Origin: Lacinutrix sp. MedPE-SW
GTDB taxonomy: Bacteria; Bacteroidota; Bacteroidia; Flavobacteriales; Flavobacteriaceae
Direction: 5' to 3'
NCBI RefSeq assembly: GCF_001874145.1
Contig: NZ_MPCX01000006.1
Location: 110,961-174,960 of the forward strand
DNA: 64,000 nt
The notes beneath the pieces are model-generated. The model ran no database searches and had not been told where the DNA came from. It was given only the letters and a program-made list of their open reading frames with translations. Below, piece by piece: positions 30,240-44,076 of this stretch. Numbering within the stretch: the stretch's first letter is position 1; each line of letters begins with the position of its first letter. The position numbers were made by a program, and so were the translations under genes.

Positions 30240-30428
30240 TTTTAAATTGTTTTAAATTTTAAATAAAGACAGTTAACATATAACTAAATTAATAAAAACT
30301 TTAACTCTGTTATAGATTGAGATTTGTAAATAACAGTGAAAGCGCTCCAATTAATACCGATATTATGGTTATTATAATAACAAAGGTCCATCTTTTCTTG
30401 TCTGTCATATTTTTTGTTTTTAATATTT

Positions 30429-30682
30429 GACAAATGTTTCGCTTATAATTTTATTTAGTATTTAAGCAACTAATTTAGCAAATATAAATAGGAAATACGA
30501 TAGAATTTTAATGATTAGCGACTTTAAAAAATAATAAAAAGATAATAGTTGGTAATGTCTTTTAATATTGCTTAAACAAGACTTTGCTATTACAAAAAGT
30601 GGGTTGTCTTATGATGAAAAATTTGTTTCAAAATTAGCTTAAAATTGCTTTTTTTTTAACTCAGTTCTTTGTTGTAAACAGG
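30429..30682 (-). repeat. two degenerate attC-like repeat copies at the distal end of the array (internal boundary uncertain)
   Basis: 30429-30556 aligns along its length to the 32509-32642 repeat (shared AGCAACTAATTTAGCAAATA) but its central hairpin is disrupted. 30671-30682 GTTGTAAACAGG is the core for cassette 4. Confidence 0.5.
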
Positions 30683-30688
30683 TTTTTC

Positions 30689-31192
30689 TTATTTTATTAT
30701 TCCACTAAAACTTTTCGATTCGCTGTATACATTAATTCCGAAAAGATTCCATTTTAAAATTCCGTTCACCGTATATTCCGCTTGCTTGTTTGGATTCAGA
30801 TTACCGGTTTGAATTGAATTAAATTCCCAAACATAACTGCCAGCAAATCCAGTTAAAACGCTATGACTTGCAGTTGGCATAAATGAATCTCCATCAGCTG
30901 TGTATTTTATTAGTAAAACAATGTCCATTGTTAGATTATCTTCAAGTGTTATTGTTTTCGACATGGAATTATAATTCCCGTTAGTCTTTTCATTTATTAC
31001 AATCATATTGTTTTTCTCTTCTTTATTAGAGGCAGAAATAATTTGAATAATTCCAATAAACATAATTGTAATAGAAACTATTTTAAATTGTGGTCGAAAT
31101 ATTCGTTTTCCAATTGCAATAAAACCAAATATTAAATACAAGAAATAGAAAAAAACAATTCCATTAAGTACTGTCCAAATTAAATATATCAT
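30689..31192 (-). CDS. cassette 4 ORF: membrane-anchored protein of unknown function
   Basis: 167 aa with two N-terminal TM helices and a beta-rich C-terminal domain; bounded by attC-like repeats. Confidence 0.5.
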   Translation of the reverse strand: MIYLIWTVLNGIVFFYFLYLIFGFIAIGKRIFRPQFKIVSITIMFIGIIQIISASNKEEKNNMIVINEKTNGNYNSMSKTITLEDNLTMDIVLLIKYTADGDSFMPTASHSVLTGFAGSYVWEFNSIQTGNLNPNKQAEYTVNGILKWNLFGINVYSESKSFSGIIK

Positions 31193-31210
31193 AAGTTTTT
31201 GTGTTTCAAA

Positions 31211-31348
31211 CCTTGTTTATAACGGTCTTGTATATGAAAAGTAGCGGATTTTAAACACTAATTTTTTAGATTATAACTGACCTTTAAATTATTCATTTTC
31301 TTTTGTTTAAGCGATTAAATCGCTATTTTTCATATATGTTGTTGCCAG
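31211..31348 (-). repeat. attC-like inter-cassette repeat 3 (diverged centre)
   Basis: Ends conserved with repeats 1 and 2 (TAACGGTCTTGTATATGA ... TATATGTTGTTGCCAGTAG). The centre carries a different hairpin, GCGAT-TAA-ATCGC. Confidence 0.6.
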
Positions 31349-31367
31349 TAGTTTTTATTCGAATTTA

Positions 31368-31781
31368 TTAATCAAATGGAACCAAATCAGGTTCTAAAAA
31401 TTTCGTTTTGGCTTTATCAGAATTGTAAATGTCAAATCCATAATGATAAGACATTAAATCCTTAAAATTATTTTTCAGTCGTGGGAATTCCGCTATAAAA
31501 TTCTTAAAATTATCAGATTTTGATTTGCGCATAAAATGATAAACTGCTTTTATTGCTGCCAAAGTTAAAGTCACATTGTATTTGTCTTTCGCTCCCACAA
31601 ATTCCACAAAGTTTTTCAATCCGATTTGAATATTTTTTTCAGCTTGTTTGATTCCGTATTTTTTGATGTTAATCCACGCCAATCTCAAGTGAGCTTCGTG
31701 AGTAAAGTGAGATGGGTTTAATTTGCAATTAATAAACTCTTTTTCAAAGACAGAATCAGAAAGTTCAAAATGTTTTTCCAT
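31368..31781 (-). CDS. cassette 3 ORF: small soluble protein of unknown function
   Basis: 137-aa helical ORF bounded by attC-like repeats; no motif recognised. Confidence 0.5.
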   Translation of the reverse strand: MEKHFELSDSVFEKEFINCKLNPSHFTHEAHLRLAWINIKKYGIKQAEKNIQIGLKNFVEFVGAKDKYNVTLTLAAIKAVYHFMRKSKSDNFKNFIAEFPRLKNNFKDLMSYHYGFDIYNSDKAKTKFLEPDLVPFD

Positions 31782-31817
31782 AAAATATATTTTTCAGGTT
31801 TGATTTTGTTCAAATTA

Positions 31818-31950
31818 CTGCCAACGTGTTTGTGTAAGATTAGTTGCGTGTTTAAGTATTAAAGTTAGCAAATAAATCATAACTAGAAAATCCGCAAGGA
31901 TTTTAAGAAGTAGACGAGAACAAGCAATTACTTATAGCCATTGTTGTGGT
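31818..31950 (-). repeat. attC-like inter-cassette repeat 2
   Basis: About three-quarters identical by eye to 32509-32642 over the full length. Terminal cores are CTGCCAAC and GTTGTGG; central hairpin AAAATCC-GCAA-GGATTTT. Confidence 0.7.
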
Positions 31951-32465
31951 TAGTTTTTTATTCGTTCAAATTCATAATTGCTAATTCCTCCATAATCTCC
32001 TGCCATAAAAATAAACCAAGCTCCATTTTTATATCCACGAGTTAAGTTCAGATTTCCGTTTTTATTATTTCCCAAAATTGTTTTCCTTTCACGATGAAAA
32101 AATAGAGCAGGAATGGGAACTAAAATCATTTTTTTCTTAATTGAGAAATAATTATCTACAATTTCCCCATCAAATAACATGCTTTTTGTAATCGAATCAT
32201 TTTCGATTAAACTTGCTTTTAATTCCGTATTACTTATCAGTTCAACTTTTACAAATGAGTTTTTAGTGGCTGCTGTTGTGTCTCCTTTAAAAGTTTTATT
32301 ATCAGCAAGAATATTCCAAAGCCCAGTTTTACCATTATCTCCAATTTTGTTGCGGTAAACTCCATTTATATTTTCAGCCGAAAACTCAGTTGATTTATTT
32401 TCACTTTCGGCAATCAATTTCTTTGTTGAAAAGCAACTCGTCAGAGTCAGTGAAATAATTAGCAA
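31950..32465 (-). CDS. cassette 2 ORF: putative lipoprotein, unknown function
   Basis: Lipobox LTLTSC. The annotated TTG start truncates an upstream in-frame signal-peptide-like stretch (see findings). Confidence 0.5.
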   Translation of the reverse strand: MLIISLTLTSCFSTKKLIAESENKSTEFSAENINGVYRNKIGDNGKTGLWNILADNKTFKGDTTAATKNSFVKVELISNTELKASLIENDSITKSMLFDGEIVDNYFSIKKKMILVPIPALFFHRERKTILGNNKNGNLNLTRGYKNGAWFIFMAGDYGGISNYEFERIKN

Positions 32466-32508
32466 TATTAATTTTAATGTTTTCAGAATGTTCTTTTTTT
32501 TTAATTAA

Positions 32509-32642
32509 CCACAACGTGTTTGTGTATGATTTCGTTGCGTGTTTGAGCAACTAATTTAGCAAATACAGACCGAATAGAAAATCCGCGAGGATTTTCGTAA
32601 GTAGGCGAGTACTAGCCATTAATTTTATACGTTGTTGTACGT
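32509..32642 (-). repeat. attC-like inter-cassette repeat 1
   Basis: Starts 7 nt after the stop of the 474-aa ORF. Terminal cores CCACAACG and CGTTGTTGTACGT are partly inverted; perfect hairpin GAAAATCC-GCGA-GGATTTTC at 32577-32596. Confidence 0.7.
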
Positions 32643-32648
32643 AGTTTT

Positions 32649-34073
32649 TTAATAATCGAAATTATATTCTTTAATTAATTCTTCCCGTGATTTGGCTCCT
32701 GCAATCCATTTTCTAATGCTAATTACGTGCTTTTTCGCATTTTTTATATTAATGTCTACAATTTCATCATATTGCGTATCTAAATCTAAATGTTTTATTG
32801 AATTTAGTTCACTTGGAAATGTATAGAAAGGCATCCAGTCTTCTTCAGTCAAAACTTTAATTGGATTAATTTTTGACATTGAATTTAATTCATTAAAGTA
32901 TTTTCCATTTATTTTTTTTGCGGTTACATCAACATCAAGGAATGAAAATAGTTTATGAAAGAAAAAAGATTCACCTATAAATAATTCTTTTAAATCTTCT
33001 ATTTCATATAATGTAGGACAAGAGTTTTTTTCATTTCCTAAATTATTATAATCAATAAATTGTGTGCTGAATTTTGGTATGCAAATAACATCTAAATGTT
33101 CATAAATGGCTTCAATTGGATTATTCCCATAAAAGGTGGAAATATGTTTTGATATGAGTTTTTTTGACAAGGTACTTTTAAATGCAAAAATACCTTTAAA
33201 GAAAGGTGTTGAGCTCATACCTTTTTCTGTAATCATTTCAATACCTTCAAGTGATTCTTTTAGTGTTTTAGCATTGAGTGTAGATTTTATTTCAATAACA
33301 GCAATAACTGATTCTTTTTTCACAACTACTAAATCATCATCTCTGAAAGTTGGTATATAGTTATGTTGGTCATAAATAATTATATCAATTTGCTTACTGA
33401 TTCCTTCTATGAAACCAGTAGCTATGTGGAATTTTTTAGGAATATATTTTGATAAAACAGAAGTAAACAATTTTTCTCTGTAATTACCTACTGTTTGACC
33501 GTGACCAATTACATAATCAATACGATTACTTTGGCTTCTAATTTCATCTGAAATTGATGATAAATATCGTTTTTTGTTTTCGAATTCTTCAAGTTCTTTA
33601 GATAGTGTAATATACTCTCCTGATTTTAATTTTTCAAATTTGAATTTATCAGACCCAACTATATTTATTTTGATAAAAGCTTCTGCAATATCTTTTGTAA
33701 CGTTTAATTTTTTTTGAATGACTTTAATACAGTCTTTAATTTTTAATCGGCGTTTGTCTGATTCATAAATATGATTTATAACTAAATGCCAATTATTTAA
33801 TTTTTTTTGGATTTCTAAATGTTCTTTTTTTTGGTAAGTCTTATATGTGTTGAATAATAGAAATGGCTTAACTTCTATCTCGAAATCTTCAATCTTATAT
33901 TTTTTAAGTCCATTTTCATTTGTTGAATTTTCATTTGAAATCCATAAAATTTCGACGTCATCTTTGTAAATTTTTATTACTTGACCAAATGCTGTTTCTA
34001 TGTAATCGTCATTTAGATTAACGAATAAATGTCTATTGTTAAATGCGTAATTTAAAAACTTTTTGACTTCCAT
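32649..34073 (-). CDS. cassette 1 ORF: 474-aa protein with PD-(D/E)xK-like (DUF6602-like) nuclease core
   Basis: HGQTVGNYRE...SKQIDIIIYD...ESVIAVIEIKS gives a D...E-x-K arrangement with flanking hydrophobic strands; N- and C-terminal regions are unassigned. Confidence 0.55.
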   Translation of the reverse strand: MEVKKFLNYAFNNRHLFVNLNDDYIETAFGQVIKIYKDDVEILWISNENSTNENGLKKYKIEDFEIEVKPFLLFNTYKTYQKKEHLEIQKKLNNWHLVINHIYESDKRRLKIKDCIKVIQKKLNVTKDIAEAFIKINIVGSDKFKFEKLKSGEYITLSKELEEFENKKRYLSSISDEIRSQSNRIDYVIGHGQTVGNYREKLFTSVLSKYIPKKFHIATGFIEGISKQIDIIIYDQHNYIPTFRDDDLVVVKKESVIAVIEIKSTLNAKTLKESLEGIEMITEKGMSSTPFFKGIFAFKSTLSKKLISKHISTFYGNNPIEAIYEHLDVICIPKFSTQFIDYNNLGNEKNSCPTLYEIEDLKELFIGESFFFHKLFSFLDVDVTAKKINGKYFNELNSMSKINPIKVLTEEDWMPFYTFPSELNSIKHLDLDTQYDEIVDINIKNAKKHVISIRKWIAGAKSREELIKEYNFDY

Positions 34074-34099
34074 TTTTGAAATTTCAATTTTTATATATG

Positions 34100-34200
34100 A
34101 TTTGCTCTAAATTACGTACAACTATTATATATACCAAACATAATCATTTTGTACCGGTTAGCAAACTAATTTGTAGGAATATACCAACTTTTGTTAAAGT
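34100..34200 (-). other. attI-like junction region (core GTTGTACGT on minus strand at 34122..34114)
   Basis: The 10-nt TACGTACAAC here is repeated as its reverse complement at the distal end of cassette 1 (32634-32643). Also shares AGCAA(A)CTAATTT with the attC-like repeats. Confidence 0.55.
34135..34165 (-). promoter_or_regulatory. candidate cassette promoter (Pc-like): TTTG-N19-TATGTTTG on minus strand
   Basis: Minus-strand TTTG (34165-34162), 19-nt spacer, TATGTTTG (34142-34135). The predicted start lies just upstream of the cassette junction core. Confidence 0.5.
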
Positions 34201-34218
34201 TTGTATATATTTGATTTT

Positions 34219-35058
34219 ATGGCAGATATCGCAACTTTTTTAGACTTTCAGAAGCTTTTAAAAATTAAAAGATATAGTGAAAATAGTATAAACACTTATT
34301 TGGGTTTAATAAAATCGTTTCATAAATATGTTGGTTTTCAAATAGATTTAGAAAGCCTTGAAAACAAACAATTACTTGCTATTATTATACAAGTTGTTCA
34401 AGATAAAAACCTCGCTTATACTACTCACAAACAATTATGTGCAGCATTAAAACTTTTTTATAAAGAAATGTACGGTAGAGATATAGATTTTTCACCGGTT
34501 TATCCCACAAGGCGTCCAAGTCCCTTACCAAATATTATTTCTACTAAAGAGGTTAAGACTATTTTAGAAAGTCATAATAATATTAAACATAAAACTATGC
34601 TTACAGCCATTTATGCGTTGGGTTTAAGAAGCGGCGAATTAATTAATATTAAAATTGAAGATATAAATAGTGATAGAAATCAAATTTTTATTCGCTCTGG
34701 TAAAGGTAGAAAGGATCGCGTTTTACCATTGCCTAATTCTCTAAGATTTTTATTTAGAGAGTATTACTTACAATATAGACCTAAAAACTATTTGTTTTGT
34801 GGTAGAAATGGTGATAAATATGCTCCAGAAAGCTTACGCAAAGTGTTTAAAATGGCCGTATTTAAAGCTGGAATAAATAAACATATTACATTACATAGTT
34901 TGCGCCATGCGTATGCCACACATTTAATGGATAGAGGTACAGATGTTAGAATTATAAAAGAGTTACTTGGTCACAGTTCTATTAAAACCACACTTATTTA
35001 TACACATGTGACACAAAAAACTTTAGAAAACATACCAAGTCCAATAGATTTTCTTTAA
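34219..35058 (+). CDS. tyrosine site-specific recombinase, IntI-like but Xer-length
   Basis: R..(GKGRKDR)..HSLRHAYATH..LLGHSSIKTTLIYTHV catalytic set and C-terminal SPID tail. ATG at 34219 preferred over the ORF-track TTG at 34201. Confidence 0.85.
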   Translation: MADIATFLDFQKLLKIKRYSENSINTYLGLIKSFHKYVGFQIDLESLENKQLLAIIIQVVQDKNLAYTTHKQLCAALKLFYKEMYGRDIDFSPVYPTRRPSPLPNIISTKEVKTILESHNNIKHKTMLTAIYALGLRSGELINIKIEDINSDRNQIFIRSGKGRKDRVLPLPNSLRFLFREYYLQYRPKNYLFCGRNGDKYAPESLRKVFKMAVFKAGINKHITLHSLRHAYATHLMDRGTDVRIIKELLGHSSIKTTLIYTHVTQKTLENIPSPIDFL

Positions 35059-43179: not shown

Positions 43180-44076
43180 TTATTGTCTTGGATGAAACGT
43201 TTGCATAACCTCTTTTAAGTGGCTTTTATCCACGTGCATATAAATTTCTGTTGTGGTAATGCTTTCGTGACCAAGCATAAGTTGTATGGCTCTTAAATCT
43301 GCTCCATTTTCTAATAAGTGCGTGGCAAATGAATGACGAAATGTATGAGGTGAGATTGTTTTACCTAAATTAATTTTAGTAGCTAAATCTTTAACTATAG
43401 TAAAAATCATAGCTCTTGTAAGCTGCTTTCCTCGTCGGTTTAAAAAAAGAGTGTCTTTAAATTCACTAGCAATAACCATGTGATTTCTAACTTCGTTTCT
43501 ATAAATATTTATATATTTTTGGGTAGCAGGAACAATAGGTACAAACCTTTGTTTATCTCCTTTACCAGTTACTTTAATAAAACCTTCGTCGAAAAATAAA
43601 TCTGAAATTTTTAAATGCGTCAATTCGCTTACACGTAAACCACAACCATATAACACTTCAAGAATGCAACGGTTTCTCTCGCCTTGTGGTTTACTTAAAT
43701 CTACAGCATTAATAAGGCTATTAATTTCTACTTCGCTTAAAGTATCTGGAAGTTTTCTCCCAATTTTTGGTGCGTCAATAGTATCTAAAGGATTATCGGT
43801 TCTATAATCTTCAAAAACTAAAAAATTAAAAAAACCTTTTAAACCAGATATTAATCGTGATTGAGAACGTGCATTTACGGTTTTAGATACACTATATATA
43901 AACTCTTGTAATGTTTGTTTATCTATAGCTATTGGCGAAACAGATATATTGTTTTCTTCAAGATATCGTATTAATTTTTTTATATCAAAGCTATAATTAT
44001 CAATAGAGTTAATAGATAATCCTCTTTCAATTTTTAAGTATAATGTATAATCCTGTAAAGCTTGTTTCCATACCAT
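43180..44076 (-). CDS. xerD: site-specific tyrosine recombinase XerD
   Basis: 298 aa; GLRVSE, GKGDKQR, HTFRHSFATHLL and LGHESITTTEIYMHV. Confidence 0.8.
   Translation of the reverse strand: MVWKQALQDYTLYLKIERGLSINSIDNYSFDIKKLIRYLEENNISVSPIAIDKQTLQEFIYSVSKTVNARSQSRLISGLKGFFNFLVFEDYRTDNPLDTIDAPKIGRKLPDTLSEVEINSLINAVDLSKPQGERNRCILEVLYGCGLRVSELTHLKISDLFFDEGFIKVTGKGDKQRFVPIVPATQKYINIYRNEVRNHMVIASEFKDTLFLNRRGKQLTRAMIFTIVKDLATKINLGKTISPHTFRHSFATHLLENGADLRAIQLMLGHESITTTEIYMHVDKSHLKEVMQTFHPRQ

Follow-up and report, generated by a model that had tools for sequence, protein, structure and literature searches.

NucC is the endonuclease effector, activated by cyclic triadenylate (cA3), of type III CBASS systems (anti-phage signaling that relies on cyclic oligonucleotides) and of some type III CRISPR-Cas systems. 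In Shedu (SduA, DUF4263), a variable N-terminal sensor or regulator is fused to a PD-(D/E)xK nuclease, and the protein acts as an oligomer. Here we describe a gene of Lacinutrix sp. MedPE-SW (Flavobacteriaceae) whose 474-residue product contains a NucC-like nuclease domain behind a predicted sensor module and which occupies the first cassette of an integron-like array. The gene lies on a 64,000-nucleotide stretch of contig NZ_MPCX01000006.1 (hereafter the window, to which all coordinates given without a locus name refer). On balance, we think it probable that the protein is an autonomous, sensor-fused, NucC-like anti-phage nuclease of the type represented by Damona, a cassette-encoded protein of Vibrio cholerae.

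The active site of NucC, IDx30EAK, comprises D73, E104, and K106, and a D73N substitution abolishes both cleavage and immunity (Lau et al., bioRxiv 10.1101/694703). The ligand cA3 is contacted by R53, Y81, T226, and V227, of which R53 and Y81 are required for activation; cA3 shuts a gate loop, for which the essential residues H136 and Y141 form the latch, over a three-fold pocket, and two trimers stack through their α0 helices to form the active hexamer (bioRxiv 10.1101/694703). The enzyme, whose kin include NgoMIV and SgrAI, cuts with little sequence preference and is insensitive to methylation (bioRxiv 10.1101/694703). A second precedent comes from integrons. From the integron of V. cholerae N16961, Darracq et al. 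expressed 88 cassettes whose function was unknown, and 16 of them protected against phage (bioRxiv 10.1101/2024.07.02.601686; Science 2025). Damona is a single-gene cassette of the V. cholerae integron; its product carries a DUF6602 domain and scores against the Cas PD_DExK and CBASS_Endonuc_small models, its expression confers phage resistance, and the cassette can be moved to the first position (bioRxiv 10.1101/2024.07.02.601686). The same study reported that DUF6602 is distantly related to RmuC, that Shedu systems are common in integron cassettes, and that sedentary integrons are rich in toxin–antitoxin cassettes (bioRxiv 10.1101/2024.07.02.601686).

The Lacinutrix protein shares with NucC (Protein Data Bank, PDB, entries 6p7o, 6p7p, 6q1h, 6uxf, and 7zgv) the DUF6602 core, the whole-domain fold, the ID-x30-E-x-K spacing, and an α0-like helix ahead of the core. 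At 474 residues, against 241 for NucC, it additionally has a predicted SH3-like domain, a predicted winged helix, and a C-terminal helical tail, and its sequence similarity to NucC is confined to NucC residues ∼10 to 162. With Damona, as the latter has been described, it has in common membership of DUF6602, matches to the same two defense profiles, and solitary encoding in an integron-type cassette, whereas the two belong to different host phyla and to different types of integron. Damona homologues were reported mainly in Acinetobacter (bioRxiv 10.1101/2024.07.02.601686), where the family of the Lacinutrix protein also occurs; a search seeded with an Acinetobacter relative placed no V. cholerae protein among its best 120 matches. 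To Shedu the resemblance is functional and one of design logic only, as the nuclease family differs (a Pfam search found no DUF4263 match to the protein).

A NucC-type nuclease domain with an N-terminal extension

The preliminary description of this DNA, made by reading the sequence, had placed a 474-residue open reading frame (ORF) at 32649 to 34073, proposed a D...E-x-K nuclease core, and named DUF6602 as the matching family. The coordinates proved exact and the gene lies on the minus strand, which had been left unstated; the opposite strand yields a translation full of stops. The peptide quoted in support of the nuclease core corresponds to residues 191 to 266. Membership of DUF6602 was borne out by Pfam (PF20247, E 3.1e-23, 82.1 bits against a cut-off of 27). 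The 31-sequence alignment and the full-length AlphaFold model built from it start after Met1; residue numbers given here are those of the true protein.

The proposed core was found at I229-D230-x30-E261-I262-K263, with the same spacing as the IDx30EAK motif of NucC, together with the helix glutamate E200. Residues H191, G196, R199, E200, D230, D235, and K263 were unchanged in all 166 full-length relatives, and E261 was present in 165 of them. We infer that the protein is a nuclease, which would cut DNA at a metal site formed by E200, D230, E261, and K263. Profile and sequence searches pointed in the same direction. The best PADLOC match was to the CRISPR-associated PD_DExK model (E 1.8e-28), followed by two NucC effector models (1.1e-19 and 2e-16), and phmmer against all PDB sequences returned NucC proteins only (E 1e-9 to 1e-5), aligning query residues 169 to 288 with NucC residues ∼8 to 140. 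NCBIfam, including NCBI's own NucC model, gave zero matches to the 474-residue protein at E ≤0.1.

We conclude that DUF6602 is the NucC catalytic core and not an unknown domain because genuine NucC proteins fall in the same Pfam family. A Klebsiella plasmid NucC, whose operon also includes a CBASS cyclase, Cap7, and Cap6, matches DUF6602 at 104 bits. On a Rhizobium plasmid (locus L100, 1462–2184), a protein 86% identical to Pseudomonas aeruginosa NucC over the 118 residues compared adjoins a HORMA protein and a CBASS cyclase, but is annotated merely as a "DUF6602 domain-containing protein"; NucC is therefore under-called by public annotation.

The predicted structure extends the similarity well past the family profile. 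The full-length AlphaFold model had a mean predicted local distance difference test score (pLDDT) of 88.2 and a predicted template modeling score (pTM) of 0.80. Searched against the PDB with Foldseek, it matched fourteen NucC chains (including 6q1h, 6p7p, 6uxf, 7zgv, and 7zgw) at E 1e-11 to 2e-8, over 216 to 258 columns of these ∼240-residue proteins and with target-normalized TM scores of 0.53 to 0.67, while the best match outside NucC was the type IIF enzyme Bse634I (E 8e-3). Because Foldseek aligns the whole NucC chain, residues ∼159 to 410 make up a complete NucC-like domain that reaches beyond the 100-residue Pfam core. By sequence, hhalign against an alignment of three NucC proteins gave a probability of 98% over NucC residues 10 to 162. 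The Pfam, PADLOC, and structure-prediction/Foldseek searches that the preliminary description had proposed all returned nuclease or NucC matches. Its reading of the regions on either side of the core as unrecognizable does not hold: residues ∼286 to 410 are the second half of the NucC-like fold, and residues 1 to 157 are predicted to form a β domain and a winged helix.

A separate AlphaFold model of residues 1 to 165 (pLDDT 92.5) placed the winged helix directly ahead of the α0-like helix. We assign residues 83 to 157 as a probable winged helix from their predicted layout and from Foldseek matches to winged-helix domains of STK19, STIV F93, FoxP, AspA, LOTUS, and ROQ (probability 0.9–1.0). For residues 1 to 78 an SH3-like fold is a tentative assignment, to which Pfam adds a hint below its cut-off (SH3-C_UBE2O, E 0.064). 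Across the 166 relatives, mean column conservation was lowest in the N terminus (0.27–0.32, against 0.71 in the core); a variable N terminus is the usual pattern for sensor domains of defense proteins. In the C-terminal extension, W456 is kept in 162 of the 166 relatives. Viral sequences offered little by way of comparison: in a library of predicted viral structures the best match never reached E 0.001, PHROGs gave one weak family of unknown function for the protein, and among phage genomes the core domain was matched by two Klebsiella prophage-like proteins only.

A protein of this build could also be a modification-dependent (type IV-like) or a sequence- or structure-specific restriction enzyme, whose N-terminal module would read foreign DNA and whose action would not involve cell suicide. 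This sub-variant of the defense reading, which we consider unlikely, would account for a single gene without a methyltransferase, for a DNA-reader-like module followed by a PD-(D/E)xK domain, and for relatives that adjoin restriction–modification genes (see below). It is also in keeping with the nearest non-NucC structures being type IIF enzymes such as Bse634I and with the kinship of NucC itself to NgoMIV and SgrAI; the protein shares the restriction-endonuclease core fold and catalytic motif with this group of type IIF/IIP enzymes. However, known readers of modified bases (SRA, EVE, YTH, and PUA-like domains) gave zero matches in Pfam or Foldseek, and NucC-type enzymes cut with little sequence preference and irrespective of methylation. 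The protein further departs from the NgoMIV/SgrAI/Bse634I group in having no cognate methyltransferase here and in a structural match far weaker than that to NucC, and where the type II enzymes are dimers or tetramers, its oligomer is presumed to be NucC-like.

The second-messenger gate

Genuine NucC loci encode a cyclase together with Cap6 and Cap7, whereas this gene has no cGAS/DncV-like nucleotidyltransferase (CD-NTase), HORMA/TRIP13, or Cas10 partner in the window. Models for CD-NTases and Cas10 gave zero matches to the other 57 ORFs of at least 100 residues in the window, and the few PADLOC matches among these ORFs were generic housekeeping look-alikes. Nor was a cyclase found near relatives in any of the contexts inspected, which included the Vibrio, Acinetobacter, Bacteroidota metagenome-assembled genome (MAG), Dysgonomonas, and Flavobacteriaceae loci. 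Within the protein, the region of the gate loop is ∼9 residues shorter than in NucC (two gaps in the hhalign alignment), and that alignment contains no counterparts of the latch residues H136 and Y141 in this subfamily; the region of T226 and V227 is not alignable to NucC by sequence. As judged from these alignments, the protein retains its catalytic machinery in full, and the gate for the second messenger has been remodeled at the least.

These features bear on a second alternative, namely that the protein is an orphan second-messenger effector. A cA3-type ligand would then bind in a NucC-like three-fold pocket, activation would come in trans from another locus of the host genome that encodes a CBASS or type III CRISPR system, and the N terminus would only tune DNA binding. 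The retention of the whole NucC fold, the conserved counterparts of R53 (164/166) and Y81 (165/166), and the best PADLOC match, which is to a CRISPR-associated model, all agree with this proposal, as does a GG-x-[FY]-x-P-x-x-P stretch that is retained in a Vibrio-type subfamily and by eye resembles the NucC gate loop. We nevertheless regard it as improbable for the following reasons: The gate loop is shortened, and counterparts of H136 and Y141 are missing in this subfamily. Neither a cyclase nor Cas10 was found in the window or beside the inspected relatives, and a cassette that spans Vibrio, Bacteroidota, and Pseudomonadota could not count on a matching signal generator in each host. Finally, according to the literature, the integron defense cassettes studied to date are autonomous.

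The cassette and the flavobacterial platform

The preliminary description had also placed the gene in the first cassette of an integron array. Its position follows from the junctions: GTTGTACGTA, at 34122–34113 on the minus strand, is the exact reverse complement of TACGTACAAC, at 32643–32634 directly 3′ of the stop codon, and the rule is shared by all four cassettes. The next junction, GTTGTGGTTA at 32515–32506, is the exact complement of the sequence 3′ of the second gene. Cassettes 1 and 2 show perfect 10-nucleotide complementarity; in cassettes 3 and 4 it is interrupted by one or two differences. Such an arrangement is the signature of integron cassettes, where, owing to a crossover at G/TT (the slash marking the point of exchange), the next cassette begins with the 3′ part of the recombination site. 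Given this platform and junction structure, the gene is a mobile cassette in first position, which in integrons is the one normally transcribed. The cassette carries a single gene: zero further sense-strand ORFs of at least 50 residues lie between its flanking recombination sites, and the absence of a methyltransferase or antitoxin partner, claimed in the preliminary description, rests on this. At 25.6%, the guanine–cytosine content of the gene compares with 30.1% for the window.

The cassette and junction logic of an integron was thus upheld, but the recombinase encoded divergently from the array departs from canonical integron integrases in apparently lacking the I2 segment. It scores under the cut-offs of the integron-integrase models TIGR02249 and NF011946. 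Aligned with VchIntIA (2a3v), residues 14 to 187 correspond to chain residues 7 to 179 and residues 183 to 283 to chain residues 221 to 318, leaving ∼40 residues of VchIntIA (∼180–220) without a counterpart; we take this stretch to be the site of the I2 helix. Published work treats the gain of I2 as the defining step for integron integrases, one that enables them to read folded attC sites, and describes Xer proteins as being without it.

Homologues of the recombinase (274–279 residues, 50–77% identity) are common in Lacinutrix, Nonlabens, Aquimarina, Maribacter, Croceitalea, Aequorivita, and Dokdonia, the closest being from Lacinutrix (76–77% identity). In Lacinutrix mariniflava (locus L101) the homologue occupies the chromosomal site that the recombinase has in the window and faces at least 11 small one-way genes without Pfam matches; this syntenic locus holds entirely different cassettes. 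The layout recurs in Nonlabens arenilitoris and Aequorivita, where it lies elsewhere on the chromosome. The intergenic repeats of these arrays are homologous to the first two attC-like sites of the window, and the junction rule holds among them, including in L101. By eye, the TATATAA(N2)GTT context of the attI-side junction is similar at the equivalent upstream site in L101 and in Aequorivita (locus L103).

Folding of the sites gave a mixed picture until they were considered together. As single hairpins, the attC-like sites of cassettes 1 and 2 had fold z-scores of only −2.2 and −0.7 and no end-to-end stem, and this form was rejected. Across twelve aligned sites from three genomes, on the other hand, we found a long-range stem of 13 pairs with 8 compensatory pairs, plus an internal hairpin; the stem was 91% paired, a level matched by none of 500 shuffles and compared with at most 49% in slid controls. 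The platform therefore resembles classical integrons in its one-way promoterless cassettes divergent from a tyrosine recombinase, in the GTT core, in an R″ complementary to the cassette's own start, in structured covarying sites, and in variable content at a conserved locus. It differs from them in a 279-residue recombinase without I2 and in sites of ∼140 nucleotides whose interior is branched, where classical sites form a simple imperfect hairpin. IntegronFinder surveys report complete Bacteroidetes integrons essentially only in Salinibacter, and our literature search found no paper describing integrons in Flavobacteriaceae. To us the platform (34201–35058 and 30430–34122, with loci L101, L102, and L103) looks like an unrecognized flavobacterial type of integron.

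Upstream of the first junction, 62 nucleotides ahead of the ATG, lies a candidate promoter with the Bacteroides/Flavobacterium consensus TTTG-N19-TAnnTTTG, a placement that fits a cassette promoter and from which the gene may be expressed. A sigma-70 promoter scan gave 11 sites against 14.6 expected, and a scan for intrinsic terminators gave zero. The coordinates of all features are collected in Table 1.

Table 1. Features of the nuclease gene, its cassette, and the adjoining platform (window coordinates)
Feature	Position	Strand	Basis or remarks
Coding sequence of the NucC-like (DUF6602) nuclease with predicted sensor fusion, 474 residues plus stop	32649..34073	−	ORF listing, ATG start
Small β domain, possibly SH3-like, residues 1–78	33840..34073	−	AlphaFold strands 16–19, 28–35, 39–46, 55–60
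Probable winged-helix domain, predicted sensor of DNA or ligand, residues 83–157	33603..33827	−	Helix-helix-helix-hairpin layout
Long α0-like helix and complete NucC-like PD-(D/E)xK nuclease domain, residues 159–410	32844..33599	−	Foldseek, hhalign, phmmer
Pfam DUF6602 match, catalytic core, residues 188–281	33231..33512	−	
E200 codon, helix glutamate of the PD-(D/E)xK site	33474..33476	−	166/166 relatives; aligned to NucC E39
D230 codon, counterpart of NucC D73	33384..33386	−	166/166 relatives
E261-I262-K263 codons, counterpart of NucC E104-A105-K106	33285..33293	−	E 165/166, K 166/166
C-terminal helical extension, residues 411–474, no NucC equivalent	32652..32843	−	Helices 434–456, 462–470; no Pfam match
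attI-side junction GTTGTACGTA, predicted crossover G/TT, start of cassette 1	34113..34122	−	Exact reverse complement of 32634–32643
Candidate promoter of Bacteroidota type (TTTG-N19-TAnnTTTG), within attI and directed into cassette 1	34135..34165	−	Pattern match
attC-like site of cassette 1 (R″ TACGTACAAC ... R′ G/TTGTGGTTA)	32506..32643	−	Homologous to Lacinutrix and Nonlabens array repeats
Cassettes 2–4 with attC-like sites, the last site degenerate	30430..32505	−	Genes 31950–32465, 31368–31781, 30689–31192
Divergent tyrosine recombinase, 285 residues from TTG or 279 from ATG at 34219	34201..35058	+	Pfam Phage_integrase and SAM_4

Cassettes 2 to 4 encode proteins of 171, 137, and 167 residues, for which we found no Pfam, NCBIfam, PADLOC, or PHROG family, the sole trace being a weak PADLOC match of the 137-residue protein (PDC-S09, E 0.016); by eye, the 171-residue protein is lipoprotein-like and the 167-residue protein membrane-protein-like. 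Beyond the fourth cassette (30310–30406, minus strand, and 30407–30484), the attC-like repeat is degenerate, keeping TATTTGCTAAATTAGTTGCT without the ACGTTG end, and an ORF of ∼32 codons, hydrophobic by eye, separates it from an outer-membrane β-barrel gene; this stretch is probably the decayed end of the array. A second tyrosine recombinase of 298 residues (Phage_int_SAM_1 and Phage_integrase; 43180–44076, minus strand) lies 8 kb away in a position that is kept in Lacinutrix. It is probably the housekeeping XerC/D, and the cassette-associated recombinase would therefore be an extra paralogue.

In the L. mariniflava array, a non-coding cassette of ∼480 bp that starts GTTATCTATAAGTTACTCACC is present in two copies (L101, 447–1056 and 9372–10000), one directly at attI and one deep in the array; cassettes have therefore been duplicated or shuffled. 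Some junctions there hold an inserted element of ∼200 nucleotides with long inverted repeats (for example, L101, 4707–5053 and 6315–6624). A further cassette of this array (L101, 6625–8385) encodes a 586-residue AAA_15/AAA_21 ATPase, of a family typical of defense systems, which suggests that other cassettes of the platform also carry defense genes. The sequence of the window is also present, without differences, in a metagenome scaffold (LOPE16-1 scaffold_15, ENA ERZ23497579). Breaks in the SRR3646240 assembly around the nuclease gene were considered as a sign of cassette polymorphism and rejected, as the break points do not fall at crossover sites.

Relatives, activation model, and implications

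A word-indexed search returned 66 relatives, mostly of 450 to 500 residues and mostly from Bacteroidota, with others in Vibrio, Pseudomonas, Paraburkholderia, and Mariprofundus. In a HMMER scan of 1.84 billion representatives of clusters formed at 50% identity, 2307 proteins matched at E ≤1e-3, 381 at 1e-10, and 85 at 1e-30; with 85 clusters at the last threshold among 1.84 billion, the full-length architecture is rare yet widespread. Among GTDB species representatives the best match was 55% identical, so that the Lacinutrix gene is specific to a strain or population.

The relatives for which we inspected the surroundings lie in mobile or defense contexts. That of Vibrio parahaemolyticus (P0026) sits in a superintegron with canonical VPR attC repeats on both sides, and its position in the array varies by strain: in one it is the fourth gene after the integrase, and in others it is buried among cassettes for ParE/Phd, acetyltransferase, and glyoxalase proteins. 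One V. parahaemolyticus strain (locus L005, 4039–5001) has, beside the array, an integron integrase split by ORF calling into parts of 230 and 79 residues, which suggests that intI is frameshifted or interrupted. A relative in a Bacteroidota MAG is followed by a short attC-like hairpin with bulged bases (by eye) and has cassette-like genes nearby. In Dysgonomonas the gene belongs to a conjugative element and adjoins a type IIG restriction-methylase and LmuB; in another member of the Flavobacteriaceae it stands at the end of an integrase-bounded island with methyltransferase, HATPase_c_3, HNH, and Eco57I genes; and in Acinetobacter haemolyticus it lies between genes for 985- and 910-residue proteins, by eye candidates for a PHP-type ATPase and a UvrD-like helicase. 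Pooled PADLOC searches of 84 neighbors in 16 further genomes gave 3 to 6 proteins each for AriA, GajA, PtuA, LmuB, Old, AbiLi, and mad, models that overlap so that the counts are not additive. The window integrase, used as a tblastn query against the loci of 88 relatives, revealed an integrase near the family gene only in V. parahaemolyticus; thus, the family is not tied to the flavobacterial platform.

The preliminary description had left open whether the gene serves defense or is a toxin. Single-gene defense is favored by the PADLOC matches, the NucC fold, the contexts of the relatives, and the Damona precedent, and a regulated defense nuclease is more likely than a simple toxin. A toxin or addiction gene would stabilize the array or a host element through a nuclease aimed at the host and would have no role against phage. 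Sedentary integrons do hold many toxin–antitoxin cassettes, ParE/Phd pairs adjoin the V. parahaemolyticus relative, and the protein is a predicted DNase, but no antitoxin ORF is present in the cassette and none is conserved beside the relatives inspected. In addition, an unregulated 474-residue nuclease in an expressed first position would kill the cell, and a multi-domain build with a variable N terminus fits a sensor-effector rather than a small toxin; we consider this explanation very unlikely. A role in housekeeping or element-maintenance DNA processing (repair or recombination) outside any conflict, to which the commonness of PD-(D/E)xK domains and winged helices in repair proteins and the distant DUF6602–RmuC relation (Darracq et al.) might point, is hardly credible in view of the patchy spread (no copy above 55% identity in a GTDB representative), the wholly different cassettes at the syntenic L. 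mariniflava locus, the low guanine–cytosine content of the gene relative to the window, and the mobile and defense contexts of relatives, none of which speaks for conserved housekeeping orthologues.

For an autonomous, sensor-fused, NucC-like nuclease, we propose the following course of events. The catalytic module, a full NucC-type domain, would cut DNA through its E200/D230/E261/K263 metal site, and the winged helix and SH3-like module, fused to the α0-like helix, would replace the second-messenger input. The N-terminal module would hold the nuclease off until a phage cue appears, which could be phage DNA, modified or structured DNA, or a phage protein. Once the cue is sensed, an active oligomer would assemble, DNA would be degraded, and the infection would be stopped, possibly at the cell's cost. 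The gene is carried as a promoterless single-gene cassette, here standing first, beside attI.

Several observations weigh against this proposal. Damona was compared by its published description only and not by sequence, so that the likeness implies neither orthology nor shared terminal domains. The counterpart of NucC R53 is K214 (R or K in 164/166) and that of Y81 is Y239 (aromatic in 165/166); because these positions are conserved, the ligand pocket may persist, and a small-molecule signal could still be needed. All winged-helix matches of residues 83 to 157 in Foldseek have E ≥0.015, none reaching 0.001. The count of defense genes among the 84 neighbors in 16 genomes stands without a matched background. 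Lastly, the promoter pattern has 7 matches in the window against 6 expected, which is indistinguishable from chance.

We put forward more tentatively, as a possibility that we do not expect to hold in every part, a further-reaching version in which the protein descends from NucC but has become independent of a second messenger. Its gate for a cyclic trinucleotide would have been lost, and α0 would have become fused to an SH3-like and winged-helix sensor, so that a single protein of cassette size would both sense phage and destroy DNA. The gene would ride an unrecognized but widespread flavobacterial platform with covarying attC-like sites and a Xer-sized recombinase without the I2 helix that is regarded as essential to reading such sites.

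If the proposed reading is true, a two-part signaling defense (cyclase plus NucC) has been streamlined to one gene of integron-cassette size, in which the oligomerization helix of the effector is wired straight to a sensor, and the protein would offer a tractable system for nucleotide-independent activation of NucC-type enzymes. Marine Flavobacteriaceae would then join Vibrio in the idea of integrons as banks of defense genes. The gene may matter less than its carrier, whose covarying folded sites and I2-less recombinase bear on the evolution of integron integrases from Xer-like ancestors.

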